Of a DNA stretch of 64,000 nt, positions 7,714 through 64,000 are shown one piece after another. The translations under genes were made by a program, and so were the position numbers. The DNA is from Candidatus Omnitrophota bacterium (GTDB lineage Bacteria; Omnitrophota; Gorgyraeia; Gygaellales; Profunditerraquicolaceae), in assembly GCA_016208765.1 (NCBI GenBank), contig JACQXK010000004.1:84243-148242 (forward strand), in the 5' to 3' direction. The notes below the pieces were generated by a model. That model saw only the letters and a list, made by a program, of their open reading frames with translations. It did no database searches and was not told the DNA's origin. Numbering within the stretch: the first letter of the stretch is position 1; each line of letters begins with the position of its first letter.

Positions 7714-7721
7714 AATACTAA

Positions 7722-16414: not shown

Positions 16415-16422
16415 AAATAATC

Positions 16423-45539: not shown

Positions 45540-48500
45540 TTAATTAAGCCACCATCTGCGCCTTAACCAATACGGCATTTGCCCAAATCCAAACGCATAG
45601 CTCTGAGAAAATGTATTAAGTAAACAGCCGTAATTTAAATTTTCATTGCTGTTTCCTTTCATACTTACGGCAGAGCTGGATTTATATGAATGTTTCCCGA
45701 TTTCAGATAGCAGCGCCTCTTGAATAGGAATTATATAGTCTTGATGCGTATATTCAGGAGACTGAGCAATCACGGTTAACTTTTGGCTAAATCTTGTTCT
45801 CTCAAAAAGTATTTTGATAGCGGTAACAATGCGTTCATTTAAGATATCGTTAAACCGTTCTCTGTTTCCACAAGAACTCAATATCCTGAAAGCCGGATCA
45901 ATGTAGCAATTATTTAGTAAAAAATAATCAATGTCAAAATCAAGTATTATATCCGGATAATCTTTTAAGTCGGAGAAATACGGAAGGTCATAAACATGGA
46001 TGACTCTTACATCAGGAATTAAACCTCTATTTTGTCTCCTTGCTTTTATGAGCAATTTCCGGACATTCTTTTGCTCTTTGGCTGGATTCATATAATGAGG
46101 AACAATCCAATACATCCTTGAAATAACCCCATGATAAAATAACGGCATTATCATAGAAGCGCAATCGTATTCAGACCACCAGTTTTGTATGGTATTTTGG
46201 CCGAGGCCATATATACGCGATGGCATACTCAAATCACTATGGGCATCAAAGTGGATTAATGTTGCTCCACGGGAAATTCTGCTTTTCAGCAAATACTCAA
46301 TTACTACGTTATACATCTGGCCGTGATCTACCACCAACCAAAGGCCATCATTGATCATTTTTACGCCTCTTAATATAACACGATCAAAACACTGCATCAT
46401 TGGAGCAAGCTTTACCGGTAGAAAAGTATGACTAACCTCATCAACTACAGCAACTTCAGGGCCGTTTCCTTCTTTCTTTATGGCGGAGCTGGAGTTACGC
46501 TGGAAGTGTCCCCTGTCTTCTGTCGCCGAGGAGGCGCCGCTTGTTAGCTTACCCACTGTCCCGATTGATTTGGAAACAGTTTCCGAGTTGTTCGGGAAAC
46601 TGGGCTCTTTTAGCACCGCCGAGGATGCACCCTCATCGGAATTAAATATTGTGTCCCTGGAATTAAACACTAACCTTATTGACATTCCTCCTGCCATACA
46701 AAGATATCTATATAAATAAAGAACGCCGTTATTCTCAGAATAATCGACTATCATCCCGGATAAATCCACGACATCGCCATTTTTATCCTTCGCATACCCC
46801 CTTATTACCAAACACGTCGGCTGACCTATTTCTTTTCGTGCCAAAAGCAGTTTACGCCGATACATCAGGTGTAAAGTTTCCTCAGTTTGCAACAGCAACA
46901 CTTGTGATAGAGTTTTAATCCTAAATATTTTATATGAACCATTATTAATTGCTTGAGCCCAAAACAATTCGGAGCGAAAACAGGCTGGATATAATAATGA
47001 GCTCCATAATCTGTTTCTGTCTATCCTTTTTGCATCGGCCCCTGCCTCACTTAAATCTACATCTTTAATTAAGGCCAATCGACTACCGCTACAAGCAATG
47101 GCAGAGCCGGAGCTATGCTGGAACAGCCCCCTGTCTTCTGCCGCCGAGGATGCGCCCCATCTTATGCGACCCACTATCCCGATTGATTTGGAAACAGTTT
47201 CCAAGTTGTTCGGGAAACTGGGCCCTTTTAGCACCGCCGAGGAAGCGCCACCGTTAGAATTAAATGTTGTATCCCCAGAATTACCACCAGAGTCCTCATC
47301 TATATACTCAAAAGCCGCATGTCTTATGGTTCTGCCGTTTTTGATCTCGGCAATCGGAATATCTTTGTAATCTTTAATATCAAAAGAAGTATTTACGCCT
47401 GATGATTTAATATGCCACTCCCTAAATGCATTCTCCACTAATCTATCAAGTTCCCCAAAAATTTGTGCTGCGGAAAAGTTTCCTTCTGTTAAACATCTTC
47501 GCTCGCCTTGCCTACAGATAGAGATACTAATAGGGTTTTTTTCAAAACTTGTGCGGACGATAACAATATCCTTGGCCATACCCAGGGATTCTACTATAGG
47601 AGTAGGGTTCCAAATGAACCCTATCTTTCTTAATCCCTCTAACTTAGTAGAAACAAATCTAGATTTACCAGTAGCACTCGTGTCTAATTCTGGATGCACA
47701 TCATCTATCCTCAACACTTTCTCATTTTTAGGATCTACAATCTGCTTTATTTTATTAGATAGATCTCCCAAAGAATAATTCTCGCCAACAACATTTACGA
47801 AGCATGGCATAGAACCTTCAAATTCTTTTATAAGCGAAGCTGCTAGGGCAGCGCAATCCCAAAGAGGAATAAAATTATAATACAGAGCGTTAGCATTTGG
47901 TGGCATTTTAAGAAAACTTCCTTCCAAAATATTCTTTATAAATTTTGACACTATGTCTATAGGTTTACCTTTTTTAAATAATGGAAAAAGGTTGCCCAAT
48001 CGCAAAACAACAGCCCTGAGTCCACTATAGTGCACCCTTCCAGCAATTGCATTTTCTATAATTATTTTACTTAATTCATATGGATGTTCAAGGTTATACC
48101 AACAATCACACTCACCCACTTTTTCCACTGTCTCTCTCTTACCATAAACCCTTAAAGAAGAAGTAAATACTAACCTTGTCGTTTTCATTAAATTCAAGTT
48201 TTTTAAAGCATCTAGAATATTAAAAGCCATTGCAATATTATTAGAAAAGATACTCCTAAATTCATCTTCGCTATAGCTGTTTTGTATTCGACTATCAGAA
48301 GCAAGATGATAAATAAAGCTCGGCCTTACCATACTCAATACTTTTTCCGTAGAAGCATAATCAGTTAAATCACAATGAACAATCTTTACCCTTCCTTCTT
48401 TTACCGCTCTTGAAAGACTACGGTTCAATGGTAAATCTGAAAGATAATCAACCCTGGAGGTGAGAACTGTTATGTCCTCTGCTACTGGATAATCAAGAAG

Positions 48501-48860
48501 TTGTGATAAAACCATAATGCCTAAATGCCCAAGCCCTCCAGTAATCAAAATCTTGTCTTTCTCTTTTCTAGATAAAGTATAGTCAGGCTTGCCTACTGAC
48601 TCTATAAGGTCAAATAATAACGACGCTCCACTCTTCTCGTCTTCCATATCAACATCCAAAGTTATTTTTTCCTTTTCTCCGGATAACGGCAACCATCGCT
48701 CTTCCCGGTCATCAATTTCCATGGCATCTGGAGATGCAAAAGGCAAAACCCCAAATTTTAAAAGCAAGAAAAATATGTCAGCCAACTGAACAAAATGCTT
48801 TCCTTCTAATAGATTACCCTTCAATCTCAATAATGGTATATAATCAACATCTCTTCGCAT
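45540..48860 (-). CDS. Giant multidomain protein (1106 aa): NAD-dependent epimerase/dehydratase, repeat, unknown domain, repeat, arginase/deacetylase-like domain
   Basis: Rossmann motif ILITGGLGHLG (nt ~47570-48545). C-terminal VVDHGQ...HFDAHSD. Two in-frame copies of the repeat family at 46462-46666 and 47098-47284. Confidence 0.6.
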   Translation of the reverse strand: MRRDVDYIPLLRLKGNLLEGKHFVQLADIFFLLLKFGVLPFASPDAMEIDDREERWLPLSGEKEKITLDVDMEDEKSGASLLFDLIESVGKPDYTLSRKEKDKILITGGLGHLGIMVLSQLLDYPVAEDITVLTSRVDYLSDLPLNRSLSRAVKEGRVKIVHCDLTDYASTEKVLSMVRPSFIYHLASDSRIQNSYSEDEFRSIFSNNIAMAFNILDALKNLNLMKTTRLVFTSSLRVYGKRETVEKVGECDCWYNLEHPYELSKIIIENAIAGRVHYSGLRAVVLRLGNLFPLFKKGKPIDIVSKFIKNILEGSFLKMPPNANALYYNFIPLWDCAALAASLIKEFEGSMPCFVNVVGENYSLGDLSNKIKQIVDPKNEKVLRIDDVHPELDTSATGKSRFVSTKLEGLRKIGFIWNPTPIVESLGMAKDIVIVRTSFEKNPISISICRQGERRCLTEGNFSAAQIFGELDRLVENAFREWHIKSSGVNTSFDIKDYKDIPIAEIKNGRTIRHAAFEYIDEDSGGNSGDTTFNSNGGASSAVLKGPSFPNNLETVSKSIGIVGRIRWGASSAAEDRGLFQHSSGSAIACSGSRLALIKDVDLSEAGADAKRIDRNRLWSSLLYPACFRSELFWAQAINNGSYKIFRIKTLSQVLLLQTEETLHLMYRRKLLLARKEIGQPTCLVIRGYAKDKNGDVVDLSGMIVDYSENNGVLYLYRYLCMAGGMSIRLVFNSRDTIFNSDEGASSAVLKEPSFPNNSETVSKSIGTVGKLTSGASSATEDRGHFQRNSSSAIKKEGNGPEVAVVDEVSHTFLPVKLAPMMQCFDRVILRGVKMINDGLWLVVDHGQMYNVVIEYLLKSRISRGATLIHFDAHSDLSMPSRIYGLGQNTIQNWWSEYDCASMIMPLFYHGVISRMYWIVPHYMNPAKEQKNVRKLLIKARRQNRGLIPDVRVIHVYDLPYFSDLKDYPDIILDFDIDYFLLNNCYIDPAFRILSSCGNRERFNDILNERIVTAIKILFERTRFSQKLTVIAQSPEYTHQDYIIPIQEALLSEIGKHSYKSSSAVSMKGNSNENLNYGCLLNTFSQSYAFGFGQMPYWLRRRWWLN
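46462..46666 (-). repeat. Full-length copy of the in-frame repeat (A-part + DR + palindromic core + DR + C-part)
   Basis: ccgtttccttctttctttatggcggagctggagttacgctggaagtgtcccctgtcttctgtcgccgaggaggcgcc...ggaaacagtttcc...caccgccgaggatgcaccctcatcggaattaaatattgtgtccc. Confidence 0.85.
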
Positions 48861-48910
48861 TAATTCGTTAAAGACATCCGGATTACTTGATATAGTTATA
48901 GTCTATGTTT

Positions 48911-51900
48911 CTAAATATTAATATCAATTTGCTTTATCATCTCTCCAAATCTTAAAGTAAGAGCATATGTTCCAGGAGGTAAATTCAAAGTAGCCAAATC
49001 AATTTCCCCTTTAAAGATAAAATACTCGTCGCCATAATAGGAAAACGAGCGTTTCTCATCCAATCTTGCAGGAAAAACTGCAGTCGGATGACCTAAATCG
49101 TCTAAAGTTGGTTCTTTCTTCGCCGTTATTGCCACACCGAGCCACATAGCAAAATCCTCGTCTCCGGGTAAATATATATGAAAAGGAGGATTACCGCAAA
49201 CAAACGGCCGAAAATCTTTTTCTGCATAAAGCTCAAACATTCCTTGTATATGTCTTGCGGCATAGTCAAGGGCTTCGGGCTTAGTCCGAAAAATCGCTTC
49301 CCAAACGTCCAGTTTCACAGCTGCCTCCAAAGAAATCTTGCCATCTGAATTAACCTTAATAATTGTGTCTGGCTCCGGAGAAACTAATGCTGTCCACAGA
49401 TGCGAAACCTCTGCCTTTTGCCAGCGAATTTCCGAATCAGGGTAGATTCTCCTAGCTTCTATCTCTGGCGGAATCATATCTTTCAGTGGCCAAAAATATT
49501 CTCTAGTTTCTTCAAGAGCTGCTTCTTTATAAGTAACCCCCGCAGCAATACCTGTTGCTAAAATAGTTTGCAAATATTCTATTTCGCCATAATTCCCAGC
49601 TTCTCTCAATGCTTCAATTCTTTTATAAAATAATGCAGGCAGAAATTCATCTTTAAACCAGTTGAAAAATATTACTGGATAAGCAACGTTCTGCTCATGT
49701 AAGAATTGCAACAATCTATTTACTCTATTTCCCATAGGTGGACATACCGTGCATTCCATCTTAGGATTAAACCACTTCTTAAAAATACCTCCCATCCTTT
49801 CCCATCCGTCAACAGAAGCAAATCCTTCCCCAAGAGACCCCCCTCTTGAAAAAGCCCTATGGTCACAAGGATAGATTTCTGATGTAGCGCCTAAACAAGT
49901 ACAAAAATAAGCAAACCAACAGCGATCATAATCCGGCTTTCCAATGCCTCTGGATATATCTCTTTCATCATGTATGGTCTCCACCTTAAACCTGCCATCA
50001 GAAAAAGCCATTGATAGATTAAGACTCTCAATAATTTCTTTTTTATCTCTATCATTTAATAAACAGGCTTGATCGGGCCTGATATTAACCTTAAAACGTA
50101 TAAGATCAACGCCTGCTTTCTTAAGCCTTTCTGTTATCTGAACAATGCCTTTAAAATTCTCTTTTCCAATAACATACCCAACGTTTATTGCCAGTTTTGA
50201 GCCAGACTGATTCCTCATATTAACCAGCTCTTCAATATTTCTCATTATTCTTTCAAAATCACCTCTTCTACCTTCTTTCAACTCAAAGAAGCTGTCATTA
50301 CCATAAGCGTCCAAGCTGATATGCACATATTTCGCATAATTCACCAATGTCTCTCTAACTTCTTGGCTCATCAATACACCATTAGTGAATAACCCAACAT
50401 CAAAACCAAGCCTTGACGCTGCTGCTATCCCAAGAAGAGTCGTCTTTTTATTCACTAATGGCTCTCCGAATATGCCGGAAAATTTAATAACTTTCGTTCT
50501 TAATGATGGGGCAGCTTCTTCATTCGCAAGAAAAAAGTTGCAAAGCAACTCTAGTAACCAAAGAGGAGACATTTTTTTCTGAATTTTGCATCTTTCTTTC
50601 TCTCCGATGCAGTGCTTACAGTTTAGATTACACCCACCCGAAGGCTGAACTTCTATTTCATAAGGCAGAAAATCAAATTCCCCATTTAAAATTTTCAAAA
50701 CTCTGTCATATTGCCTTGTAAGTATATTTTCTTCGTAATTAAACTGCGTCCCTGAACGAGATAAGAAAGATTCTAACGCATTCTTCCATTTCACCTTCAA
50801 AGAAAATGATTCTGCTTCTCCACCAACCCCAGAAGATAAGCAACTATCTATTGCAGCAACTTCAGAACCTACACCGTTTCCTTCTTTCTTTATGGCTGAG
50901 CTGGAGTTACGATGGAACTGTCCCTCGTTTTCTAAGGCCGACGAAGCGCCTGCGGCAAAATTAAAACTACAATCTTCAAATCTCATAATCTGCATATCAA
51001 TTTCCTTATCAACAGAAAAATAATCTATATTCTGGTTTCTTGTAGATTTCTCATAAAATACATTTGGTTTGCGAAAGTTCGGCTTAAAATCAAAAATAAC
51101 CCAGTCTTCTTGCCCATAGAAAAGCACTCTCACCCACATATGACCATATACAATTGATTCAGTCCAGATTGCCTGAACATTTTTTATCTTATATTTCCCA
51201 AATTTTTCAAATTGATCAAAGTGCGAATAAAATAATAGCAATATCGCCCTAGAAATAACCCCACAATCATTCTCTCCAACAATTTCATGTAATAAAACGC
51301 CAACAAAATTATGCACAAGAGGATCAACAACAATACGTCCATCAAAAATATCTTGAATTGGATAATTAATTGAATAATCTTTTAAATTTACCTCGGTTAA
51401 ATTACTAAGTTTATTAGTTAAGGGCCGAAATTGCTTATAACGCTTATTCGCAATTAACAACACGTTTCCCCGTCTTTCAAAAATATCATTTTTATTCCAA
51501 TCAAGAACAACGGACGATTCTATTCTTTTCTCCAACGGCGAAGAGACAGCTGTCAAATTAAGCATTGCATCCCCTGAGTTCCTCCCACCTCTTCTTAAAA
51601 ATATTGAATAGAGCCTAAACCATTCTTGCATTAACTCAATCTTATCCCAAAGAAGAATTACAATATTAGAATCAATATTATTACAAAGGATTCCATTGCA
51701 ATCTTCTTTAAAAATTATTGAATCACCATTAAAATATACACAAGAAAATAACCCTGCTTCTTCTAAATATTGAATATACGACCCCTGTTTCCTTCCCCTG
51801 CCAGTAAATATCTCCTCCAAACCAAAACGATGGCTTATAAAAAAGTAGTCCGTTAGCATAAGCGGAATATGAAAGTATATTTTGTAGCCTCCCTTTAAAT

Positions 51901-54900: not shown

Positions 54901-57900
54901 CCGCCGAGGATGCGCCGTCGTTAGAATTAAGTATTATGTCCCCGGAATTGCCCCCATGAACCTTATCCTCAAATATTCTTTTAAGCACCCTGAAGTCCTT
55001 CGCCCAAGCCAAATCATCTTGAACTAATATTTCCCCGATTATTTTCAAGGCTGCATCTAAACCACCGGAAATTTTAGTAAAATGTTTAGCCAAAAATTTG
55101 CCTACGCAATGAGAGAAAAAACTATCGTCATTCTTTATGTCATCTCTTAATTCCTGGAAAGACAGATGATCATTAAGCGCCTCAAAGATTATTTCCTCTT
55201 TAGTTTCTTGTAAAACATTTACCAAAGGAATCTGTTTAATATGTGCATAACGGGTAATCGGATTTTCTCCATTTTGTCCAATCATCATTATTGCTGTGAA
55301 GACTTTTTCCTCTTTTCTGTAATCATAATTTTCCCAAAGCTGAGGAACTGCCAACATCTGGGAAATGACATCTAAGGTTTCGTGAACACCAGCATCTACT
55401 TTGGTAACTCTGCCTTTTAATATTTGGCATAAAACAAGATGCCCTATTTCTGCTGCAACATATTTCAGCCTACATTCTTGCATCCTTACAGGTCGGCCAA
55501 GATTAATTCTTTCTTCATGTGGGAGTGAAGTTATTGCTTCAGCATTACCAAAAACAATTTCATTACTAATTATTATCAAAAACATCCTGCCATCCCATAA
55601 TAAAGGCCTTCTAAAAATCCCACTAGTAAACAACGCAGGATAACCTTTATAACCAAAGATCCTTGATGGACCACTGATTATCTTATAAGATTTCTTTATT
55701 TTTTCATAAAGAGCCTCCTCACAAAGGCCGAGCCTATACAACATCTTAATAATGTGGGCATCCGCAAACAATCTTAAATATTCTGGTTCATGAACAATCT
55801 CCCAAAAGTTAGATACCCAAAGCTTAATTTTAATCTTTGTTTCTTGTTTCAAATCAGTACGATTTGATTTTTTAATAATATCCATAGCGCCATTTCCTTC
55901 TGTCTTTATGGCAGAACTAGAGTTATAATGGAGCTGTCCCCTGTCTTCTGTCGCCGAGGAGGCGCCGCTTGTTAGCTTACCCACTGTCCCGATTGATTTG
56001 GAAACAGTTTCCCTAACAATCTGGAAACTGTTTCCGGTCTCCAAATTAAGTATTGCACCTCCGGAATTACCTACCGGAGAGCTGGTAACGCGACGATATA
56101 AATGCATATTTCCAAATACGCCTATTTCTTGAATGTCTTTATCAACGTCAAGTGTCCCCGGTGGAATTAACCCACTAATTAATGGATCTCTAAGGTCAAA
56201 ACCTGCCAGATACATGACTGCGCCATTTTTCATTTGCATAATACTGAGTAAAAGCGCCAGGGAAAAAAATGAGCCATCTTCTAACGGGGGATAGATATGA
56301 AATACATCATACAATCTAAGATCTTGACTGCTGCAATCATTAAAGACCAAATGGACTCGGCCTGGATCAATCGCACCTAACTGAACAAGTTTAGAATAAA
56401 TTGCAGATTCTTCATTATGTATCCATTTATTAATCTCAAAACGCGTTGCATCTATGCCCGTTACCGCATTGACTAACATAGCTAATAATCCACCTCCAAA
56501 AAGACTGCAAAATTTTTCATTCTTACTGAAATATCCTTCCTCTTGTAAATACCGAATAAAATTTAAAGCGCTCTCATAGCCTATTGCCGAATGAAGAGAC
56601 GTATGATAACCGGGGCACTCAGCAATCCTGTCCAGGTATGCCTTGTATTCTTTTATAACTGCAGCTATTTTTTCTTCGGCAGTTAGTTGAGTTGTCGGCG
56701 GGATAGAACCATCTTCCACCACAGAGGAGGCGATACTTGGGCCGACAGGAAAATGCTCATCTATAATGAACTCTTTTAAAGAAAATCTCTCGGCTATAGC
56801 ACCTAGATCTGCCTCTTTCCTGCTTATACCGGCTTGACCAGTGTAAACAAGATAACCCTGAATTGCCTGAGCATATTTTCCTTCCCAAATCAAAATCGCA
56901 ATAGTAAGCCTTGCGCGCACATCTTCGCTAAACTCCCGAAAATCCATCGCCTGCCGCAATCTTGACAAGATCTGCATCCAATACTTCCCTGTAACTAAAC
57001 TAAGGTCGGTTTTAATATTATTAGCCAGATTGCTCTGCGTCATTAGCCTGAATCTCCCTGGATTCTTACAAAAATATTTAATGATGTAATGTACTGCCTT
57101 ATTGACAACCCTTTCTTGCCTCGGACTTAGAAGCGCAGAAACAATCTCATTTTTATCAGAGCAACTATCTTCTCCTGCATGCAACACAGACACAGGAGCC
57201 GCAGGCAAAAGAAGCGGGGATCTTTCTCTTTGAGTAGTGCAACCCCTGCCAAATGAAGGCTGGCTTCTTCTAATGAACGCCCTTCTCTTGGCTAACAAAT
57301 GATAAACCCTAATCGCCTCCCGATGCCAAAAAATACTACAAATATCTCCCGAAATAAAACCGGGATGATTTCGCTTCACAAAATCATAATACGATAACTT
57401 TAGATCCTGATCGCTGATGTAGCCTTCCTCTTCCTTGCTCCTTGGATAAAAACCAAATAACCAATATGAACTTAGGCGGGGCTTTTTTGACGGCAAATAT
57501 ACACGGTATCTCCGGGACGAATAATATAAGTACGGGTCTTCTCTCATAATATCAAACGCCCATATATTAATCCCGCAACGGATCCTTCCGGTAACCAGTA
57601 ACTCAACCGTAAACCTGCTCGTATATCTTTGCACCCTGCCTATTGGCATTAAAGCTTTTCCAACCGCATGAACTGTCTTGGTCTTTAACAAAATTTCATA
57701 TGCCTGAGCGGTCAAAACAAAGAATTCGTTGAATTTTTCTAATAAACCTTTCTTAACCAAAGCACGACTGGTAATTTGGAAAAAAACTTCACTTAATCCT
57801 GTGGCTTTAACGAATAATTTAGGTGAGTTATGCTTCCTGGAAACAGCAAAAAACACTAATACCTGCGCTGCATTAGCAAAGCGCTTGCCTGAGGAACAAA

Positions 57901-57955
57901 TATCCTTTTGGAGACAATACCTTCTCCAAACCCGCCGCACAAGAAACGCCTTCAT
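48911..57955 (-). CDS. Giant multidomain protein (3014 aa) with at least 7 unrelated segments joined by in-frame repeats; includes a B12-binding radical SAM, a second radical SAM, and a transglutaminase-like Cys protease domain
   Basis: Uninterrupted 9-kb ORF. B12-binding motif DIVGVTATSV...IGGPHFT plus CPYGCIFC at ~52998-53026. CNLNCKHC at 50603-50650. Cys/His/Asp triad DCGVISRA...YGHMWVRV...DWVIFD at ~51.0-51.5 kb. Repeats at 50874, 51548, 52226, 53696, 54812 and 55891. Confidence 0.6.
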   Translation of the reverse strand: MKAFLVRRVWRRYCLQKDICSSGKRFANAAQVLVFFAVSRKHNSPKLFVKATGLSEVFFQITSRALVKKGLLEKFNEFFVLTAQAYEILLKTKTVHAVGKALMPIGRVQRYTSRFTVELLVTGRIRCGINIWAFDIMREDPYLYYSSRRYRVYLPSKKPRLSSYWLFGFYPRSKEEEGYISDQDLKLSYYDFVKRNHPGFISGDICSIFWHREAIRVYHLLAKRRAFIRRSQPSFGRGCTTQRERSPLLLPAAPVSVLHAGEDSCSDKNEIVSALLSPRQERVVNKAVHYIIKYFCKNPGRFRLMTQSNLANNIKTDLSLVTGKYWMQILSRLRQAMDFREFSEDVRARLTIAILIWEGKYAQAIQGYLVYTGQAGISRKEADLGAIAERFSLKEFIIDEHFPVGPSIASSVVEDGSIPPTTQLTAEEKIAAVIKEYKAYLDRIAECPGYHTSLHSAIGYESALNFIRYLQEEGYFSKNEKFCSLFGGGLLAMLVNAVTGIDATRFEINKWIHNEESAIYSKLVQLGAIDPGRVHLVFNDCSSQDLRLYDVFHIYPPLEDGSFFSLALLLSIMQMKNGAVMYLAGFDLRDPLISGLIPPGTLDVDKDIQEIGVFGNMHLYRRVTSSPVGNSGGAILNLETGNSFQIVRETVSKSIGTVGKLTSGASSATEDRGQLHYNSSSAIKTEGNGAMDIIKKSNRTDLKQETKIKIKLWVSNFWEIVHEPEYLRLFADAHIIKMLYRLGLCEEALYEKIKKSYKIISGPSRIFGYKGYPALFTSGIFRRPLLWDGRMFLIIISNEIVFGNAEAITSLPHEERINLGRPVRMQECRLKYVAAEIGHLVLCQILKGRVTKVDAGVHETLDVISQMLAVPQLWENYDYRKEEKVFTAIMMIGQNGENPITRYAHIKQIPLVNVLQETKEEIIFEALNDHLSFQELRDDIKNDDSFFSHCVGKFLAKHFTKISGGLDAALKIIGEILVQDDLAWAKDFRVLKRIFEDKVHGGNSGDIILNSNDGASSAVLKKPSFPNNLETVSKSIGTVGKRGASSAVDKGAFSLTQGGKDLMSLGINYSRVVRTESEFRQLVAIPIGLEIELSQRHSENECNLRGIAAILPTKEECCGTSWEDEDKHLNLVEIKTRPAWSPAIQVLTLGKIMQNACLRKEDIVSVQVNVGVRAYQYNLIHKDIKKMLLRDLEWLMFDVVVAYVSDKRIQFKKTGKTVRFRKQAEYLEERKYCRFEYGFADIENSAKIITTLYWGHACIFYYYYYIVANKMKMKDGELDFRHQLAFIGENICEQLHNEEIRKGAKVNLSRALTFVDLIGWRDENPEEIRAIQPVLDTLIFGCQEVFRRHARNEVSYRRSRSSSAVGSFWGTTLNNSGDTIFNSDEGASSAVLKEPSFPNNLETVSESIGTVGKRGASSAVNKRILLIDTQPLPNLRADSIVSTYLSSILRDPQLFSKIFPGSRMPEYEVKILCLMTGFDRLRGEAARLRLKNVFAEFNPDIVGVTATSVSIREAVQAAGIAKEYNPEIITLIGGPHFTLLPIEVLQASEFDIGFAGQAEEALVRAVYILAKYGFVSDQLSRVQGIIFKDKSGNKQTTAIVDNRKQIIHFRPDDFPFAANSLDLLKDALGDSRNISRFGMMTSFGCPYGCIFCASNVWGKAIKSRSIPHVMQELIYLRSQGIFFIVFFDDTFTLNPQRITSLCQEFIRVGLGIKWICHSRADCLSRELLKLMQQAGLVGINIGVETGDQDLLNKIGKGVDLKTVRLVTKWAQDLGLFIGHYYLVGLPGQTIASVQKTIDFISISQPNFIELATLIPYPGLDFQGRVRFVGGKKFGPVDNFPDRNFFHTETDLLTSEQVRSAFRLIVAAFKDTQNQRRLRDWVDLANSIPGSHNSCNSGDTIFNSDEGASSVVKIAGAAEIEEDIKKLIRGNIPTYLLYTHLIIKKADSLSTLKWLEFAGYVYDPLQEFNPHGDIDSLKIIEILQKHKDCPTIFVHVGGSMNYCMVQNFGIFLKSLIASNYLKGGYKIYFHIPLMLTDYFFISHRFGLEEIFTGRGRKQGSYIQYLEEAGLFSCVYFNGDSIIFKEDCNGILCNNIDSNIVILLWDKIELMQEWFRLYSIFLRRGGRNSGDAMLNLTAVSSPLEKRIESSVVLDWNKNDIFERRGNVLLIANKRYKQFRPLTNKLSNLTEVNLKDYSINYPIQDIFDGRIVVDPLVHNFVGVLLHEIVGENDCGVISRAILLLFYSHFDQFEKFGKYKIKNVQAIWTESIVYGHMWVRVLFYGQEDWVIFDFKPNFRKPNVFYEKSTRNQNIDYFSVDKEIDMQIMRFEDCSFNFAAGASSALENEGQFHRNSSSAIKKEGNGVGSEVAAIDSCLSSGVGGEAESFSLKVKWKNALESFLSRSGTQFNYEENILTRQYDRVLKILNGEFDFLPYEIEVQPSGGCNLNCKHCIGEKERCKIQKKMSPLWLLELLCNFFLANEEAAPSLRTKVIKFSGIFGEPLVNKKTTLLGIAAASRLGFDVGLFTNGVLMSQEVRETLVNYAKYVHISLDAYGNDSFFELKEGRRGDFERIMRNIEELVNMRNQSGSKLAINVGYVIGKENFKGIVQITERLKKAGVDLIRFKVNIRPDQACLLNDRDKKEIIESLNLSMAFSDGRFKVETIHDERDISRGIGKPDYDRCWFAYFCTCLGATSEIYPCDHRAFSRGGSLGEGFASVDGWERMGGIFKKWFNPKMECTVCPPMGNRVNRLLQFLHEQNVAYPVIFFNWFKDEFLPALFYKRIEALREAGNYGEIEYLQTILATGIAAGVTYKEAALEETREYFWPLKDMIPPEIEARRIYPDSEIRWQKAEVSHLWTALVSPEPDTIIKVNSDGKISLEAAVKLDVWEAIFRTKPEALDYAARHIQGMFELYAEKDFRPFVCGNPPFHIYLPGDEDFAMWLGVAITAKKEPTLDDLGHPTAVFPARLDEKRSFSYYGDEYFIFKGEIDLATLNLPPGTYALTLRFGEMIKQIDINI
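53696..53834 (-). repeat. Representative copy of the in-frame modular repeat (DR-core-DR-C form)
   Basis: caccgccgaggaggcacc + tcgcttacccactgtcccgattgattcggaaacagtttccaagttgttcgggaaactgggctcttttag + caccgccgaggatgcacc + ctcatcggaattaaatattgtgtccccggaatt. It is about 90 % identical to copies at 46462, 47098, 54812, 55891 and 60921. Confidence 0.85.
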
Positions 57956-59714
57956 CAGAATCAGATGCTACATCATCAGGAATACCCGAGAATATGTCTC
58001 TGGAAATAATTGGGCTGCTTGCATCTATCCTGTCCGCGCGGAATATCAGGCTGACAACCGTAGAATTAGGGACAAGATTGACAATACTCACATGCCCGTC
58101 TAAAAAAGCTTTGGCAAAATTCAACACATGAGTTAGCCCTAAACCATTGGCTCCCTGCTCTCCTTTCTTATTTTTGCTTCTGCCGAGGCCTTCAACAAAA
58201 AATAATGCAACTAACCCATTCATTTCAACATAATTATCTATATCTTTCAATGCCCTCTCAAGATCGATCAGGCGCTCAAATCTATGAGAATTATTCTTCA
58301 GGTATTCTCCTTGCTCAGGTATCCCGAGGATTTCAACGATAAGTTGACCTGTTATTTTGTCGCGCCAAAGCTTTTTTCTATCGGCCTGTTTTTTTATTTT
58401 TGAATATAGCTCGTCCAGAACAAAATGATCTATATTCCCCTGGTTCTCAACGCTTAACTTAAATACACCTGTAGTTGGTTCTGATAAATTTATCCTGATA
58501 ACGCCTGACAAGTTTTCATCGTGGGCATTCTTCAAAAGCTCCCCAATTAAGAATCTCAGCATGAATTCAAGACCTTTCTCAAGAATAAGTTGCCTGTCTG
58601 CGTAGTTAATTATGCCTGCGGTATCAAGTTTCCAATAAACTTTGAGGCGTTGATTAACACCAGAGTATTCAATAGAATTGTGTTTTAAGAAAGGGAATCC
58701 GTCTATAATATGATTTAGCAAATCAGAAAAGTCAATTTCTGCTAAAAACGTATATTTGCTGAATGACCTTATTCTATTTATAGCCTTATTTTCTGCCAAG
58801 AGTTGTTCATTATCAAGACCGTTTCCTTCTTTCTTTATGGCAGAGCTGGAGTTATAATGGAGCTGCCCCTTGTCTTCTGCCGCCGAGGAGGCGCTTCGTG
58901 AATAGAGGGCTCTTAAAGCAACGTGGAGCAGAAAGGCCCTCCCATACCATTGATTATAGCCTATATCGAGTTTCCTAAAGATACTCATAAGCGCCTTATC
59001 AACTTCAACGGTTCGCGCGGAGAGCTCGGAAGAATCATTGATTATACATGAGAGAAGATTATCTCCAATTATACTGAGTTCTTCCTCAACTCTGCCTATG
59101 CCTTTCCAGAAGGCAGCTTCGTACTTCTCTTGCATAGAGAATAAACTCCCAGACTCAGGATACATCAACCTCCCTATTGATCTTTGCTCTGCCAACAATT
59201 CTTTATTAGCCAAGAGCACAAATACACCTTCTTCTCTCCAGAAAGAAAAGGACACCCCTGCAGGATAGGTAAGATAACTAAACTTACCCCAATTATTTCT
59301 GAAAGACATCAAATCGACGTTCTCAAAACAATCCAATAATAGCTCTATGTTCCTAGCAATGCATAGTTGTGCTTCAGCGTCAACCAGAACCCTATCTGCA
59401 GGATAATTGTCCTCTGGGCCATATGGCCCCTCTTTTACAAGTTTTCCAAAAGGTTCGCGCAAAAACTCCGGCAGCTCAAGTTCTTTTAGATATCTTAAAT
59501 TATGCTTGAATCTCCCAAGCTTATTTAAAACCGCTCCATCCTTTATATCCGAAAAATCAAATGTACGGCAATACCTGACCTTTGATAAAAATTGTAACGT
59601 ACGTGATGGCTCCAATGCAGAAATTCCAAATTCTGCACCTAAATATGGTCCGGCCGCACATTGCAGGGTTATCGGTCCTTTAGCGTGGTAATCAAGCCTC
59701 TTCTTAAATTCCAC
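57873..59714 (-). CDS. Multidomain protein (613 aa) with an internal repeat copy and a C-terminal GHKL/histidine-kinase-like ATPase domain
   Basis: Bergerat-fold motifs LLKNAHDENLSGVIRINL ... GANGLGLTHV. Repeat A-part at 58819-58895. The frame stays open upstream through the repeat at 59729-59785 up to a TAG. Confidence 0.5.
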   Translation of the reverse strand: MEFKKRLDYHAKGPITLQCAAGPYLGAEFGISALEPSRTLQFLSKVRYCRTFDFSDIKDGAVLNKLGRFKHNLRYLKELELPEFLREPFGKLVKEGPYGPEDNYPADRVLVDAEAQLCIARNIELLLDCFENVDLMSFRNNWGKFSYLTYPAGVSFSFWREEGVFVLLANKELLAEQRSIGRLMYPESGSLFSMQEKYEAAFWKGIGRVEEELSIIGDNLLSCIINDSSELSARTVEVDKALMSIFRKLDIGYNQWYGRAFLLHVALRALYSRSASSAAEDKGQLHYNSSSAIKKEGNGLDNEQLLAENKAINRIRSFSKYTFLAEIDFSDLLNHIIDGFPFLKHNSIEYSGVNQRLKVYWKLDTAGIINYADRQLILEKGLEFMLRFLIGELLKNAHDENLSGVIRINLSEPTTGVFKLSVENQGNIDHFVLDELYSKIKKQADRKKLWRDKITGQLIVEILGIPEQGEYLKNNSHRFERLIDLERALKDIDNYVEMNGLVALFFVEGLGRSKNKKGEQGANGLGLTHVLNFAKAFLDGHVSIVNLVPNSTVVSLIFRADRIDASSPIISRDIFSGIPDDVASDSDEGVSCAAGLEKVLSPKGYLFLRQALC

Positions 59715-59746
59715 TGCCGAAGAGGCAGGACCGTTTCCTTCTTTCT

Positions 59747-62700
59747 TTATGGCAGAGCTAGAGTTATAATGGAGCTGTCCCTTGTACCACTAAAATCTGA
59801 TTTACTCAAAGTTTGCCTCTTAATTCGCGAACTATTCCGCTTCCACCTATTGACTATGCCATCGCTTTCGATCTCAATAACTAAATTATTAATTGACGTT
59901 GCCATTCTTGCCACAGCCAAGCCTAAACCACGGCCCTCTAAACCGATGTTTACCTTTGTAGAATATAAATACTTTAAAACATTCCTAATTGCGAATCCTG
60001 AGAGATTTACTCCTTGATTAGAAATCTCAATAACGATTTCATCCTTATTGCGGCGGAATATCCTGCCTTCCACTGTTGTTCCAGGGTAAGCAGCGCTCAA
60101 TGCGTTCCGGATAACTTCGTATATAGCGTTTGCTATGTCGTCCTCCGTAAGAAAAAATTGCGCTTCTTTTAGGGCGGACTCAATTTTAAAATCATAAATA
60201 TACCGCTTGCCAAGAACATTCGCCAAATCTTGTAATTCCTCGCCAACCATCAATCCCCTTATCATCGGGAGAATCTTGACCCAGGAAAGCCCAAACCCTT
60301 CATATAATTCATGCAAGCGAGGGCTTTGAAACCTATACCTTTCTTCATTAGCCGGATCTCTCTCAATAACATTGAAATAGAATATCCTAGCCGTCCTATA
60401 AATTACGCGTATTACTTTTAAATAAAGGTCCATTAAATAAAAGTAGCGTTGTTTATTCAAGGCTATGACTTTTTTGTCTTTCATAAAAGTAGGGAATTCA
60501 TCGACCAAATCATATAAATTAGTCATAATAAGCCCCAAAGTCGGATCGGCGTAATCTCTTTTAATTAATTCTTCTCCATTTCCTTTGTCATATATATCCA
60601 ATAATTTACTGATAAGTTGATTTACTCTATTCTTGCTGTAATCAGTTTTACTACTTTGACCATGATCTGGAAACACCGAATTAAAATTACCGATGAGCTT
60701 TTGAAGCCCTTTAAGATATTTGGAAAGATAACGATCATATAATTTTATCGCCTCCTCCATAGCTATCCTCTCATTACCGATATTTTGCAAAGCGCTCACC
60801 TTACCAATTACCCGAAAAATTAATCGCTTCTTGATGCTAAAGATAAGCCTCTCAAAATGCTCTCTGAAATATTTCAAGAAAAGCTTAGTAAATAAATAAG
60901 CTGGTTCTGTTTTTTCCTCCGCAGCCGAGGAAGCGCCCCGCTTACCCACTGTCCCGATTGATTCGGAAACAGTTTCCAAGTTGTTCGGGAAACTGGGTCC
61001 TTTTAGCACCGCCGAGGATACGCCCTCGTTAGAATTAAGTATTGTGTCCCCGGAATTACGCTGATCTAAATACCAAGATAAAAAACGCTCAGTTGACCAC
61101 CAATAAAATAGAGCACCATCGGAATGATTAAAACCCTCCCAAAAATATCTTTCATTAAGAGCAAAATTATAGAAAACCCCCTTATGATGCAAAAGATAAT
61201 GAAAATACAAATTATCCTTAATTGCGGCTTTAGAAAAATGCTTTCTTATTGAAAACCCCGGAGTTCCGTAAATAGTATCGAAGATAAAATGAAAAGTAGC
61301 CCGTAATTTAGCGTTCTTTCTCAGCTCTGCGGCCCAAAGGAACCATTGCCAATGGCAAGATTCAAAATAACCGCCTGAGACGATAAAATCTGTAGCTTGC
61401 GGATCTAAAACAAAATCCTTGAGCTTATCTTTATCAACAGCAGGATCAACAATCAATTCATTATGCGGCTTCAAACAAGAATAATGACCTTGCCGGAGAA
61501 TTTCTAAATTTCGGCCACAACCTAATCCTGTCTGCTTCATTAGATTTTCAATACCAACCTGTTTTCGTGAATCTTCAGCGTCAATGATGATATGCCGCAC
61601 ACCGTTAAAACACTCAAGAGGACGCATAGATGAAGAAGCATAACCCCATATAGAAGATATACCTTTGCTATCTTTGAATTCCTTTAATCCAAGCCTAACA
61701 ATCCGCTCCTGTGTCCGCTTCCTTTGAACCTCTATCCACTCTGATGCTTCTTGCTTGGTCAATGTTAAATTCTGAGTGCCGTCACCTTTAGACAATTTTT
61801 TCTCTCCAAGGGGCCGGACAACCGAATTAAAATAATTAAAAATATCAGCAAAACGCTGTCTAACGGCGTACACAGAGATATATTCCATGCTATTACAACC
61901 TATTATTTCTTGAAAGGCAGCCATAGTTAACTCGGTTCCCAATCCCCTGCCTCTGTAATCAGGGGCAATATCTATATAATGGATACTCCCAAAGAAATAT
62001 AGATATCCTTTGAATTCGCCAAATTCTCCATCCTCCAGAGATATGGCTAAACGTACAGAACGTAAAAAATCAAGCCTTAAATCACCGCCCATTTCTTCTC
62101 TTTTACCTTGTTCTAATTTTCTTATAAACCATTCCAAAGAATCATTTAGTTCGTCAAGCATCCTTTTACTATCTTCTGTTTTCCTGTCGTTCTTATTAAA
62201 ATAATTAGAATACCAATGATATAATCCAAGCACAGCAAACCGGCATTGAAATATACTGAGCCTATCAGCGGGAACATATAATAAGGGAACCATTTTCCTG
62301 CCCTCGCTGTCAAGCGTATATATAAGATCCCGGTAATGCCTTTGTGGCTCATATGAATTGTAGCAGGCAAGACTGGTTTTCTCTCCCACCGCCGAGGAGA
62401 CGGATTCTTTTCCGGAAAAATATGAAGCCGGACGCGTGCCAATAATTGCCAATGCGTCATCACCACTTTTATGAACCACCCATTTCCTTAAATAAAATTC
62501 CCCTGGCCTTGGCGAACTCCAGTAAGTTTCATTTGTATTAACGCGTATTCCAATAATTCCCACATCTACATTTATTGCCTTTCTTTTCTTGTTAACCAGA
62601 AAATGTTTAGTATCAGGAGTGTGGGCAACTATCTGAGGCACGCTTGCTTCAAGAAACCAGAAACGTATGTCAAAAATACCATGGTGTGTGCGCTTATTCC

Positions 62701-64000
62701 AATGGCCTCCGCTTATTACAGGATGATCATAATTATTACTTATTACCGCTCGCTTAAAAATAATATTAAATTTATTAACCAGGCTATCCAAATTTTTGTT
62801 GCCGCAAAAATCTTTATCTACACCCGCATGGACAACTATCCTGTCTTCAATGCGCAATGCTGCAATACTTCTTTCTTTTGTCACTGCTTGGCGAATTCTA
62901 TTTTTCCATTTATCAGCAATCTTAGTGGTCCATTCCTGCGTATATTGCCTACCGATAAAATTTTGAAGTTCTTTTGGAACTTCAATTCTTTCCGATACAT
63001 ACATACCCTGCCTATCTGCTTCCTGAGAATCCCTATGATGCAAGTTAGCTAAATAGTTTAATTCGTGATTTCCTGCCAAGCGCAATACTTTACCGCCGAG
63101 TCTTGAAGCTTCTGCTTCTTTCTGCAATTTTGCAAGAATCTCCCAGCAAATTATTGCGCCCATCTCTGGATGCACATCTAGCACATCACCTGTCTGAACC
63201 AAAATAGCATCTCCGGCAATCCATTTAAGCTTGGCTATAATTCTTCTTGCCTCTTCCAATGTCTCACAAAACATTAATTTATTGGCATTATCCGGAGAGA
63301 TAAATCCTGCCCTCCTGAGAATTAAAACCAACGTTTTCCATTTGGCATGCAGATCCCCGATAATTAACCCGCGTAGTTTTATATCCGAAGGCAGACTATT
63401 AATCATCCCCGAACCTATCAAAGCATTCAAAGGAATAAACCCCATCTCCCTTTGACGAATTAATTCTAAAATTTTGGTTATTCTTTTTTCTTTCTGGGTG
63501 GCGTCTAAATTCAACAAATCGTAGCCTAATCTGATAAAAGCCGGGATACGCGGCTTACTTTCTTGCATTGCACAGATAGGACTAGTGGAGTGATTTAAAG
63601 GCAGTATAAAATTAACTTGAGTTCCATAAAAAGCATGTTCTCCTTCTTTAATTTCCGGAGGAGATCTCCCGCTGACAGTCAGGCATAAGCTACTAGCAGT
63701 TTCAGGGCAGTTTCTTTCTTTCTTTACGGCAGAGCTGGAGTTATAAAGAAACTGTCTACTGCTTTCTACAGCTAAAAAGGTGTGATTACTATGCAGCATA
63801 AACTCATAAATCGCGATTACTTCCCCCTTATTCTTGCAATATTGAGCTGCTTCTGCAATTGTAAAAGCATGTTCATTAGCTAGCTCATACAAAACCGCAG
63901 AACGTGCTTGCGGGAAAATAATATATAGCCTGCCTTCGTTAGGGTACAAACGATTAACAGCGCCAGCAAATAAACGCCGCAATGTTTTATAATCCTGGTC
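59747..64000 (-). CDS. Giant multidomain protein (at least 1411 aa; the 5' end lies beyond the window): metallophosphoesterase, GNAT acetyltransferase, C-terminal GHKL ATPase-like domain, and at least 3 repeat copies
   Basis: Metallophosphoesterase motifs GDLHAKW...GDVLD...GNHE (~62990-63350). GNAT IDIAPDYRGRGLGTEL (61925-61985). GLEGRGLGLAVARM (59890-59950). Repeats at 60921-61057 and 63709-63765. The ORF terminates in the repeat at 59729-59785 in a shifted frame. Confidence 0.5.
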   Translation of the reverse strand, partial: DQDYKTLRRLFAGAVNRLYPNEGRLYIIFPQARSAVLYELANEHAFTIAEAAQYCKNKGEVIAIYEFMLHSNHTFLAVESSRQFLYNSSSAVKKERNCPETASSLCLTVSGRSPPEIKEGEHAFYGTQVNFILPLNHSTSPICAMQESKPRIPAFIRLGYDLLNLDATQKEKRITKILELIRQREMGFIPLNALIGSGMINSLPSDIKLRGLIIGDLHAKWKTLVLILRRAGFISPDNANKLMFCETLEEARRIIAKLKWIAGDAILVQTGDVLDVHPEMGAIICWEILAKLQKEAEASRLGGKVLRLAGNHELNYLANLHHRDSQEADRQGMYVSERIEVPKELQNFIGRQYTQEWTTKIADKWKNRIRQAVTKERSIAALRIEDRIVVHAGVDKDFCGNKNLDSLVNKFNIIFKRAVISNNYDHPVISGGHWNKRTHHGIFDIRFWFLEASVPQIVAHTPDTKHFLVNKKRKAINVDVGIIGIRVNTNETYWSSPRPGEFYLRKWVVHKSGDDALAIIGTRPASYFSGKESVSSAVGEKTSLACYNSYEPQRHYRDLIYTLDSEGRKMVPLLYVPADRLSIFQCRFAVLGLYHWYSNYFNKNDRKTEDSKRMLDELNDSLEWFIRKLEQGKREEMGGDLRLDFLRSVRLAISLEDGEFGEFKGYLYFFGSIHYIDIAPDYRGRGLGTELTMAAFQEIIGCNSMEYISVYAVRQRFADIFNYFNSVVRPLGEKKLSKGDGTQNLTLTKQEASEWIEVQRKRTQERIVRLGLKEFKDSKGISSIWGYASSSMRPLECFNGVRHIIIDAEDSRKQVGIENLMKQTGLGCGRNLEILRQGHYSCLKPHNELIVDPAVDKDKLKDFVLDPQATDFIVSGGYFESCHWQWFLWAAELRKNAKLRATFHFIFDTIYGTPGFSIRKHFSKAAIKDNLYFHYLLHHKGVFYNFALNERYFWEGFNHSDGALFYWWSTERFLSWYLDQRNSGDTILNSNEGVSSAVLKGPSFPNNLETVSESIGTVGKRGASSAAEEKTEPAYLFTKLFLKYFREHFERLIFSIKKRLIFRVIGKVSALQNIGNERIAMEEAIKLYDRYLSKYLKGLQKLIGNFNSVFPDHGQSSKTDYSKNRVNQLISKLLDIYDKGNGEELIKRDYADPTLGLIMTNLYDLVDEFPTFMKDKKVIALNKQRYFYLMDLYLKVIRVIYRTARIFYFNVIERDPANEERYRFQSPRLHELYEGFGLSWVKILPMIRGLMVGEELQDLANVLGKRYIYDFKIESALKEAQFFLTEDDIANAIYEVIRNALSAAYPGTTVEGRIFRRNKDEIVIEISNQGVNLSGFAIRNVLKYLYSTKVNIGLEGRGLGLAVARMATSINNLVIEIESDGIVNRWKRNSSRIKRQTLSKSDFSGTRDSSIITLALP

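Follow-up and report, generated by a model that had tools for sequence, protein, structure and literature searches.

The window, a stretch of 64 kb, ends in four consecutive minus-strand ORFs, recovered exactly as the sequence-only reading had listed them: 45540-48860 (ORF1, 1106 aa, P0006), 48911-57955 (ORF2, 3014 aa), 57873-59714 (ORF3, 613 aa) and 59747-63982 (ORF4, 1411 aa). The frame of ORF4 is still open at base 64000 and runs past the window edge, and the part inside the window (59747-64000) comprises the last ~1417 codons of a giant ORF of 5170 aa (P0005), whose C-terminal end, TRDSSIITLALP, equals that of ORF4. ORF2 corresponds to the NCBI entry 'MAG: radical SAM protein [Candidatus Omnitrophica bacterium]' on a 225-kb contig, the NCBI product (P0001) being 2981 aa long. 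Base composition gives about 0.06 stops per random codon, and a 3014-codon open frame would be expected by chance with a probability of roughly e^-190; such a frame is therefore not a chance occurrence, which bears out the claim that these are genuine coding giants. At about 30 kb, the whole locus encodes giant multi-enzyme ORFs of 5170, 613, 3014 and 1106 codons, all collinear, and its 3' 18.5 kb lie in the window. Bridging both of the frame changes described below would give about 8.8 kaa, and the longest ORF as it stands has 5.2 kaa. That these are giant multi-enzyme genes of an uncultured Omnitrophota bacterium, with this anatomy, is held with high confidence.

Pfam puts unrelated families on separate inter-junction segments, and each ORF is a chain of whole, mutually unrelated, enzyme-sized units between short, less hydrophobic spacers (all features given here and below lie on the minus strand). 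In ORF1, an NAD-dependent epimerase/dehydratase of the extended SDR type (47907-48551, ORF1 aa 104-318; PF01370, 4.9e-23) is joined to a 140-aa unit without assignment and to a UPF0489 unit (46089-46340; PF12640, 6.6e-9 to 7.8e-9, above the Pfam cut-off); the latter had been taken for an arginase fold, the sole basis for which is a non-significant match to Arginase (PF00491, E 0.29). The seven units of ORF2 include a B12-binding domain with a radical SAM core (52556-53473; PF02310, 6.7e-11; PF04055, 3.9e-33), which begins with NKRILLID right after GASSAV, and a second radical SAM core with a CxxxCxxC motif (50174-50647; PF04055, 4.5e-12), the nearest relative of which is a unit within the 4816-aa protein P0002. 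ORF3 consists of a unit without assignment and a weak GHKL ATPase unit (HATPase_c, 58437-58562; PF02518, 9e-4, 20.1 bits versus a cut-off of 26.4). Within the window, ORF4 contributes the partial end of a methyltransferase, a metallophosphoesterase-like unit (62402-63691), a GNAT unit, one unit without assignment and a GHKL ATPase above the cut-off (HATPase_c, 59894-60145; PF02518, 9e-7). The GNAT core motif is borderline (61895-61996; PF00583, 1.7e-4, 22.3 bits versus a cut-off of 20.7), and the metallophosphoesterase-like unit, which has no Pfam match, was recognised by eye from its GDLHA, GDVLD and GNHE motifs and by weak PDB matches to the metallophosphatases 2z72 and 1v73 (E about 0.09).

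Most of the domain list that had been read from the letters was thereby retained, the second HATPase_c, the GNAT and the phosphoesterase being its weaker members, but the embedded transglutaminase-like Cys-His-Asp protease was not. The segment so named (50966-51508) has no Pfam or PDB match and an AF2 model of pLDDT 38, and the window yielded no recognisable protease. Additionally, neither a SPASM domain nor a precursor peptide was detected. The full gene set also includes a complete transketolase flanked on both sides by linkers, a Fic-like domain, P-loop kinase-like units, a receiver domain and several methyltransferases; the unit repertoire is a medley, not a pathway, and the coherent suite for peptide or glycan tailoring that had been proposed does not accommodate it.

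Many junctions between units carry a DNA repeat of modular build, at most about 215 nt long, whose copies are 84-92% identical (blastn 86-92% across shared modules). The full linker, with modules A, B and C, occurs twice, at 46449-46665 (NSRDTIFNSDEGASSAV-LKEPSFPNNSETVSKSIGTVG-KLTSGASSATEDRGHFQRNSSSAIKKEGNG) and at 47098-47283, with 84% identity to the former as the reference. At three junctions, modules A and B are followed by a second GASSA, which is the start of module C (53699-53833 and 54815-54949, both as GASSAV, and 60924-61058), and at the first of these an additional SSSAVG is found 13 codons upstream, at 53872. One junction (55886-56093) combines TSSPV, a degenerate module A, a two-box element with a perfect 13-bp inverted repeat (56000-56012 / 56023-56035) and module C. 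The remaining junctions hold module C alone (50874-50950, GASSALENEGQFHRNSSSAIKKEGNG; 58813-58894, ASSAAEDKGQLHYNSSSAIKKEGNG) or its remnant (63695-63743, YNSSSAVKKERNC), module A alone (52223-52273, NSGDTIFNSDEGASSVV) or in a degenerate form with VSSPL at its end (51530-51581), or only the five-residue motif discussed below, as at 62384-62398 (ORF4 aa 528-532, VSSAV then G), between the phosphoesterase-like and GNAT units. The ORF4 junction at about aa 790 has neither repeat nor motif. The repeat that had been placed as one 50-65-aa peptide at every junction is real, as the full-length pair attests, but only two junctions have it in full, many have it in part, and others have just the five-residue motif or, in one case, neither.

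Two of the three ORF boundaries in the window are frame changes within a junction repeat. ORF4 and ORF3 lie in different frames, and the change falls within a truncated module C (59726-59785) which ORF3 reads in the usual repeat frame and ORF4 does not; the GTG start of ORF3 coincides with the V of a 'GPASSAV' motif at the junction. The end of ORF3 overlaps ORF2 by 83 nt, again in different frames, within a degenerate module A (57933-57984, IPDDVASDSDEGVSCAA), and the ORF2/ORF1 boundary is a true stop with a gap of about 50 nt. A module-C-like remnant (45642-45684, KSSSAVSMKGNSNEN) lies ahead of the ORF1 tail and stop, about 45 residues continuing past the last SSSAV motif; ORF3 has a tail of ~45 residues after its last motif as well, and both tails are non-conserved and without assignment.

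The core of the linker is a structured palindromic-box element, GGAAACWGTTTCC, with a 23-nt period made up of a 13-nt box and a 10-nt spacer. Its box occurs seven times in the window, versus 0.06 expected, in all cases within the giant ORFs, and the RNA folds into a stable hairpin (folding z-scores of -2.1 to -3.3), with no match to a ribozyme or other RNA family in Rfam. The element was also found in 42 metagenome stretches and two GTDB Omnitrophota contigs, and in 40 of 45 matches the surrounding open frame is shorter than 100 codons; many copies lie between housekeeping genes, for instance atpH-atpA and def-trxB, and often between ordinary co-directional genes. In four stretches (L002, L003, L037 and L004) it lies within giant ORFs and adjoins ASSP motifs, the L004 copy being in antisense orientation. 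The linker peptide of 50-70 aa was recovered from only three proteins, all of this genome, among 1.84 billion representatives, and a crude estimate of pN/pS among the linker copies is about 0.65. Since the core is elsewhere mostly a non-coding repeat, the long linker does not represent a protein domain but repeat DNA of an intergenic type, which has been kept as an open frame and has punctuation motifs on either side. This result does not support the long linker as the functional module. The junctions themselves behave as intercistronic spacers, accepting the repeat in either orientation and hosting the two frame changes.

Comparable repeats are known elsewhere. Rickettsia palindromic elements are reportedly selfish palindromic repeats inserted in frame in protein genes, and share with the present element a structured, dispersed DNA repeat that is both intergenic and in frame within ORFs, adding a peptide segment that does not destroy the host protein. 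However, the likeness drawn here is one of type, the phylum is another, and the Rickettsia copies lie within single-domain proteins, whereas here the in-frame copies occupy motif-bracketed spacers between units. The REP/BIME repeats, which are intercistronic repeats of enterobacteria, are likewise tandem short palindromic units between genes, often within operons and in either orientation, but differ in sequence and in periodicity, and the copies described here are also translated inside ORFs. We know of no RAYT transposase or binding protein for the box element.

The widely conserved feature of the junctions is a five-residue peptide motif, [A/S/V/T/G]-S-S-[P/A]-[V/I/L/A/M/T], usually Ala/Ser-Ser-Ser-Pro/Ala-Val/Ile, and giant ORFs of several assemblies share it at the level of the peptide. 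Its form with V, I, L or A at the last position was counted 74 times in 21,640 aa of giant-ORF pieces from these assemblies, whereas 200 shuffles gave 1.5 on average and never more than 6, and the narrower pattern SS[AP][VILMA] occurs 2.7-4.9 times per kaa in the giants versus 0.16 per kaa in 35 ordinary window ORFs. The copies in the window are partly non-independent, as they are carried along by the DNA repeat, and it is the other assemblies that lend independent support. No match falls inside the best Pfam stretches of the examined ORFs, the bulky hydrophobic fraction near the motif is 0.30 versus 0.365 (p = 3e-6), and the units delimited by junction clusters are 293 aa long at the median (IQR 219-450). 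At both Ser positions the codons alternate between AGY and TCN, which indicates selection on the peptide and not on the DNA. In some assemblies, TCG-CCG-G is a preferred codon set at the motif, and a minor nucleotide-level component may contribute to its conservation.

Taken together, the best reading, and a probable one, is a punctuated polyprotein with spacer-like junctions. The giant ORFs would be translated as polyproteins, a serine protease of elastase or subtilisin-like specificity would cut at the motif, and cleavage would free the single enzymes while the spacer peptides are discarded. The specificity is suggested by the resemblance of S-S-P-V to AAPV and AAPF, the classical substrates of elastase and subtilisin-like serine proteases; cleavage at the motif, being drawn from this analogy, is advanced tentatively. 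Viral polyproteins, for instance those of picornaviruses and potyviruses, also string protein-sized units together in a single frame and mark each boundary by a short conserved sequence, but the present genes lie on a cellular chromosome and encode metabolic and regulatory enzymes without obvious common function, and their cleavage is presumptive, no protease having been recognised in the window.

These genes belong to an already described class, the 'multi-enzyme metabolic cluster' giant ORFs of Omnitrophota (10.64898/2026.06.07.730766; West-Roberts et al., 10.1101/2023.11.21.568195; Seymour et al. 2023, PMC10066038), for which HATPase_c, GNAT, methyltransferase, receiver and radical SAM content has been described; together with the identity of ORF2, this overturns the statement that no described bacterial system has such an architecture. 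The likeness extends to the phylum, the many Pfam families per polypeptide, the matching repertoire and the uniqueness of the sequences, which have hardly any homologues. However, the cut-offs used there are 10 kaa or 20 kb, the ORFs here reach 5.2 kaa at most, and no dockerin, C39, S8 or SecA domain was detected in them. Post-translational cleavage has been proposed for the Omnitrophota giants (10.1101/2023.11.21.568195), and processing as a polyprotein, a live hypothesis, matches that proposal. Neither the junction motif nor the in-frame intergenic repeat was found by text terms in 10.64898/2026.06.07.730766, 10.1101/2023.11.21.568195 or PMC10066038.

Among the alternatives, the most serious is that the chain stays intact as a tethered mega-enzyme, the spacers being flexible tethers and the motif a hinge or a site of modification, for instance by Ser O-glycosylation or phosphorylation. 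The less hydrophobic motif flanks and the lack of an identified protease in the window agree with it, the literature treats cleaved and intact forms as open (10.1101/2023.11.21.568195), and peptides of a V. archaeovorus giant ORF were detected with processing not demonstrated there. Yet a fixed five-residue sequence ending in an aliphatic residue is more than a hinge requires, no shared pathway that tethering could serve is evident among the units, spacers of non-coding origin are bracketed by the motif on both sides, and the ~45-residue tails look dispensable; an intact chain is thus considered rather unlikely. It is improbable that the long frames are a by-product of a stop-less operon, with units made singly through RNA processing at the box or internal initiation after junctions. 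The hairpin, the frequent position of the core element between cistrons elsewhere, the two boundaries within junction repeats and the GTG of an ASSAV motif as the ORF3 start would fit such an operon, but many junctions are without the element, which lacks an Rfam match, promoter-like and terminator-like sites show no enrichment, and frames that stay open for 9-15 kb, with a motif kept at the peptide level, imply that ribosomes read across the junctions. Moreover, a Shine-Dalgarno-like sequence with an in-frame start follows 3 of 27 junctions versus 29 of 302 elsewhere, which is no enrichment, and SD-like sequences are present at about 45% of ordinary genes here.

The self-processing scheme of the sequence-only reading, in which the embedded transglutaminase-like Cys protease cuts the 50-65-aa linker and frees a natural-product tailoring set, can draw on the two radical SAM units, the epimerase, the GNAT and the existence of a repeated junction sequence. 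It is very unlikely in view of the unsupported protease, the linker private to one genome with its mostly non-coding core, the search in which neither a SPASM domain nor a precursor peptide was detected, and a repertoire that, with two GHKL ATPases and a phosphatase beside the transketolase, Fic-like, kinase-like, receiver and methyltransferase units, makes no pathway. Least credible of all is artefact or decay, whether the region was mis-assembled through collapse or chimera formation at repeats or consists of pseudogenes: the MAG source, the length of the repeats and the two frame changes inside them invite the suspicion, but by sequence comparison, as distinct from read-level evidence, the copies diverge by 8-16% or more, which makes repeat collapse unlikely, frames of 3-15 kb could not remain open in decaying DNA, and independent assemblies show this architecture and motif again.

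Under the punctuated-polyprotein reading, the motif and the in-frame repeat copies are testable candidate cleavage points. The motif is not universal, since the distant relative P0002 has one match in its 4816 aa and seems to be marked differently, by RSE[MSV]R.

Omnitrophota giant ORFs count among the longest known genes, and the four-ORF region found on the minus strand of this Candidatus Omnitrophota contig is a real feature that belongs to the Omnitrophota multi-enzyme giant ORFs. ORF calling recovered frames of 1106, 3014, 613 and 1411 codons exactly where the sequence-only reading had placed them, namely ORF1 (45540..48860), ORF2 (48911..57955), ORF3 (57873..59714) and ORF4 (59747..63982), and the remaining five frames across this region contain short ORFs only. 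The ORF4 frame reaches no stop at base 64000, and an exhaustive search with one linker copy as query retrieved P0005, a protein of 5170 aa encoded over 15.5 kb whose C-terminus is identical to ORF4; therefore, the window contains just the last ~1417 codons of the P0005 gene. ORF2 is 100% identical to the NCBI protein P0001, 'MAG: radical SAM protein [Candidatus Omnitrophica bacterium]', which is encoded on a 225-kb contig. The neighbouring 45 kb carries ordinary bacterial genes on one strand with the giants, including a sugar ABC transporter, ROK and LacI regulators and NrdJ. An alternative genetic code or a hidden stop codon was rejected, since the ordinary genes of the window have normal sizes and standard stops, and also because a table-11 open frame stays open under codes with fewer stops.

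Two of the three breaks between the ORFs coincide with the linker, a modular repeat (A+B+C) present in whole or in part at junctions between enzyme-sized units. At the ORF4/ORF3 boundary, the frame changes where a truncated module-C copy begins, and the annotated GTG start of ORF3 is the V of GPASSAV; at the ORF3/ORF2 boundary, the two ORFs overlap by 83 nt and the change takes place within a degenerate module A; and between ORF2 and ORF1 there is a conventional stop and then 50 nt of spacer. Since the ORF breaks are located in junctions, the units remain intact, and bridging both frame changes would join ORF4, ORF3 and ORF2 into about 8.8 kaa.

The enzyme content proposed by the sequence-only reading was borne out in part. 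Pfam matches above cut-off were obtained for Epimerase (4.9e-23), UPF0489 (7.8e-9), B12-binding (6.7e-11), the first and second Radical_SAM (3.9e-33 and 4.5e-12) and the HATPase_c of ORF4 (9e-7), and these assignments stand; the HATPase_c of ORF3 (9e-4) fell below cut-off, the GNAT (1.7e-4) was borderline, and the calcineurin-like unit, in which canonical motifs were recognised by eye, gave weak PDB matches (2z72 and 1v73, E about 0.09). The embedded transglutaminase-like protease is unsupported, as the unit gave no Pfam and no PDB match, its single-sequence AF2 model was unusable, and similarity to the Cys...His...Asp segment of L002, a metagenome stretch, was absent. Upstream of the window, P0005 additionally harbors several methyltransferases, a receiver domain, a complete transketolase, a weak Fic match and P-loop kinase-like units. 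The Pfam families tiling the giants, none of them dominant by copy number, are Epimerase, UPF0489, B12-binding, Radical_SAM (2), HATPase_c (2), GNAT, Response_reg, methyltransferases, transketolase, Fic (weak) and AAA_18. Such content is a medley that traces no biosynthetic pathway, and the coordinated tailoring suite for a peptide or glycan natural product envisaged at first is not supported. As regards RiPP/radical SAM-SPASM clusters, Radical_SAM and a weak Fer4_12 only were matched, and neither a SPASM family nor a precursor was found.

Giant ORFs have been described as a hallmark of Omnitrophota (PMC10066038), and multi-enzyme giant ORFs with the same content have been published in this phylum (10.64898/2026.06.07.730766), so the earlier statement that no bacterial system of this architecture had been described was mistaken. 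The likeness involves the host, as ORF2 is a Candidatus Omnitrophica protein and the junction element occurs in two GTDB Omnitrophota MAGs, and also the tiling of one polypeptide by many distinct Pfam families, the repertoire being that of the 'multi-enzyme metabolic cluster' class, in which methyltransferase, HATPase_c, GNAT, receiver and radical SAM families recur (10.64898/2026.06.07.730766). However, the ORFs of this locus, the largest of which has 5170 aa and 15.5 kb, are below the size cut-offs used for giant ORFs, at least 10,000 aa (10.64898/2026.06.07.730766) or >20 kb (Seymour 2023, PMC10066038). The locus also differs from the Archaeovorin or dockerin-type giants (West-Roberts 2023), whose dockerin/TSP3 repeats, C39/S8 peptidase and SecA-related domains were absent here in Pfam scans; S8 domains are reported for other Omnitrophota giants (10.1101/2023.11.21.568195).

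The linker is a DNA repeat rather than a protein domain. Its modules A (NSGDTIFNSDEGASSAV), B (EPSFPNNLETVSKSIGTVG) and C (GASSAAEDRGQLHYNSSSAIKKEGNG) are combined differently from copy to copy, with 84% mutual identity between two full-length copies and 86-92% over shared modules (blastn), and pN/pS between copies was crudely estimated at ~0.65. Module B, the palindromic-box core element, is partly self-complementary and folds more stably than its shuffles (z of -2.1 to -3.3). The window has 7 copies of its 13-nt box GGAAACWGTTTCC versus 0.06 expected, all 7 lying within giant ORFs. Regarding the peptide, an exhaustive search of 1.84 billion representatives found relatives of the 68-72-aa linker only in 3 proteins of its own genome, and a word-indexed search retrieved no homologues. 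What had been taken for a functional protein module is a genome-private, in-frame version of an intergenic repeat, and the copy at 55886 has the canonical two-box form known from intergenic copies.

Outside the window, the module-B pattern (22 to 25 specified bases) was matched in the two GTDB Omnitrophota MAGs and in 42 metagenome stretches. The frame open across the element was shorter than 100 codons in 40 of the 45 matches, indicating that the element is non-coding there. It is a dispersed intergenic repeat organised as a tandem array of 23-nt period, with boxes GGAAAC(A/T)GTTTCC and terminating in CAATCGGGA(C/A)AGTGGG, and intergenic copies were found in L003-L044 (e.g., L006 960-1060, L017 2390-2500 and L019) and also in L001 (3340-3400). 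It is often found 16-90 nt ahead of a start codon, between housekeeping genes that point the same way (atpH-atpA and def-trxB are examples, as is a copy upstream of purH), and is seen in both orientations with a modest sense bias. No Rfam family matched the element, and a known RNA family at the junctions was accordingly rejected. In L002, L003 and L037 (one 208-kb contig) and in L004 (contig Ga0066636_10000098), the element was located inside very long open frames, adjoining ASSP motifs. The L004 copy, at ~aa 1100 of a 1921-codon open frame, is antisense and directly follows a VSSPV motif, and it still encodes ...ETVS... because the element is palindromic. Therefore, being found both in intergenic regions and inside giant-ORF junctions, the element indicates that these junctions behave as intergenic spacers toward the repeat. 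By arrangement, this resembles in-frame selfish palindromic repeats like the RPE families of Rickettsia, as a structured repeat family is both intergenic and in-frame in ORFs.

Two of these stretches deserve separate mention. In L012 (~880-2340), an ordinary 477-codon ORF, whose C-terminus looks Mur-ligase/FolC-like by eye, continues across the box element to a stop immediately beyond, possibly a snapshot of an intergenic repeat turning coding. L001 (2898-3400) carries an Omnitrophota tmRNA gene (Rfam 166 bits) whose ARAGORN-predicted tag, ANSNLLRDRYTAVAPIKLGVAPVMPMALSLVP, is unusually long at 32 residues, and the interval from smpB to ssrA contains two tandem box-element copies in antisense orientation to both genes. 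A link between the element and tmRNA was rejected, since this is one among many intergenic sites.

The short junction motif is a more general feature than the long linker, and a term search of 10.1101/2023.11.21.568195, 10.64898/2026.06.07.730766 and PMC10066038 found neither its description nor any mention of a linker or junction feature of this kind. Of 39 S-S-[P/A] sites in assemblies other than that of the window, 29 are preceded by A or S, 33 have P and 6 have A in third place, and 33 are followed by V, I, A or L, with variable farther flanks. There are 74 matches to [ASTVG]SS[AP][VILMAT] in 21,640 aa of giant ORFs, versus 1.5 on average and at most 6 in shuffles, and SS[AP][VILMA] reaches 2.7-4.9 per kaa in the giants versus 0.16 per kaa in the 35 ordinary ORFs of the window. 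AGY and TCN codons are both used at both Ser positions, which places the constraint on the peptide. Additionally, bulky hydrophobic residues are depleted in the motif flanks (p = 3e-6), and the segments that separate junction clusters are as long as ordinary proteins (median 293 aa, IQR 219-450); after the last motif, about 45 residues lead to the C-terminal end in ORF1 and ORF3 alike. Where the repeat element is present, motif copies bracket it on both sides, as in IASSPAGKDEA-ETVSKSIGKV-SFAAASSPAKL of L003 and GASSAV...ETVSKSIGTVG..GASSAV of the window. Target-site duplication as the source of the bracketing motifs was rejected, since flanking copies are no more alike than others in the same ORF. 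In P0002, a 4816-aa distant giant relative of ORF2 on a 16-kb ENA contig, the SS[AP] motif is absent and the apparent unit boundaries read GRSEMRS, ARSESRS, SRSEVRT and ARSSAMPR. RSExR occurs there 3 times versus about 0.07 expected by estimate, and RSE[MSV]R, at positions comparable to the motif, may represent a lineage-specific alternative punctuation mark.

Selection keeps the giant-ORF frames open, and the unit boundaries are marked by a motif that is conserved at the peptide level; therefore, translation runs through the junctions. The main alternative to translation followed by cleavage is separate expression of the units, for which the tests were negative. In fact, a Shine-Dalgarno sequence with a start followed junctions in 3/27 cases versus 29/302 elsewhere, and neither promoter-like nor terminator-like sites were enriched at junctions, so that SD-led internal initiation and internal promoters or terminators were both rejected. 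A conserved short sequence at unit boundaries, as found here, is what a self-processing polyprotein should display. AAPV and AAPF are substrates of elastase-like and subtilisin-like serine proteases, and S-S-P-V, read as P4-P1, resembles them; by this analogy, we infer that the motif is an endoprotease site. The searches turned up no recognisable protease in the window. A P0005 unit without Pfam match, upstream of the window, shows HEAFH...(11 residues)...NEG by eye (~aa 1690-1720), of the HExxH...NEG type, and this unit, whose motif recalls zincin metalloproteases, is a possible candidate for the processing protease.

Cuts at the motifs on both sides of a spacer would free the units and discard the repeat-encoded peptide. 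Giant ORFs would then correspond to stop-less operons, whose former intercistronic regions would have become translated spacers with the intergenic repeat still recognisable, and, once proteolysis had excised the spacers at the motif copies on either side, a single passage of the ribosome would yield dozens of separate enzymes. A tentative proposal, possible rather than probable, is that Omnitrophota giant proteins use (A/S)-S-S-(P/A)-(V/I) as their punctuation code and are the products of such operons with excised spacers. A serious rival is a tethered mega-enzyme that stays uncleaved. Cleavage of Omnitrophota giants into several products has been proposed, with cleavage points stated to be unknown and the choice between one chain and cut products left open (10.1101/2023.11.21.568195). 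A compact, statistically strong motif common to giants of several assemblies provides concrete candidate cut sites that can be checked in existing proteomes, making the processing question directly testable, and it allows giant ORFs to be divided into units for structure prediction. Moreover, the occurrence of a repeat of intergenic type, in frame, at junctions that behave like intercistronic spacers suggests how giant genes arise and break up.

Across the whole window (1-64000), the minus strand carries the ORFs of 150 codons or more with three exceptions, plus-strand ORFs of 160-205 aa that overlap or adjoin longer ORFs of the minus strand. All 2-kb bins have a negative GC skew, and thus the window appears to lie on one replichore with strong gene-strand bias. 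Judging from translations only, two ammonium-transporter-like genes with near-identical N-termini form a tandem paralogue pair at 6050-8951, and a tandem pair of PstB-like ABC ATPases is located beside PstC/A/S-like genes at 15662-17169.
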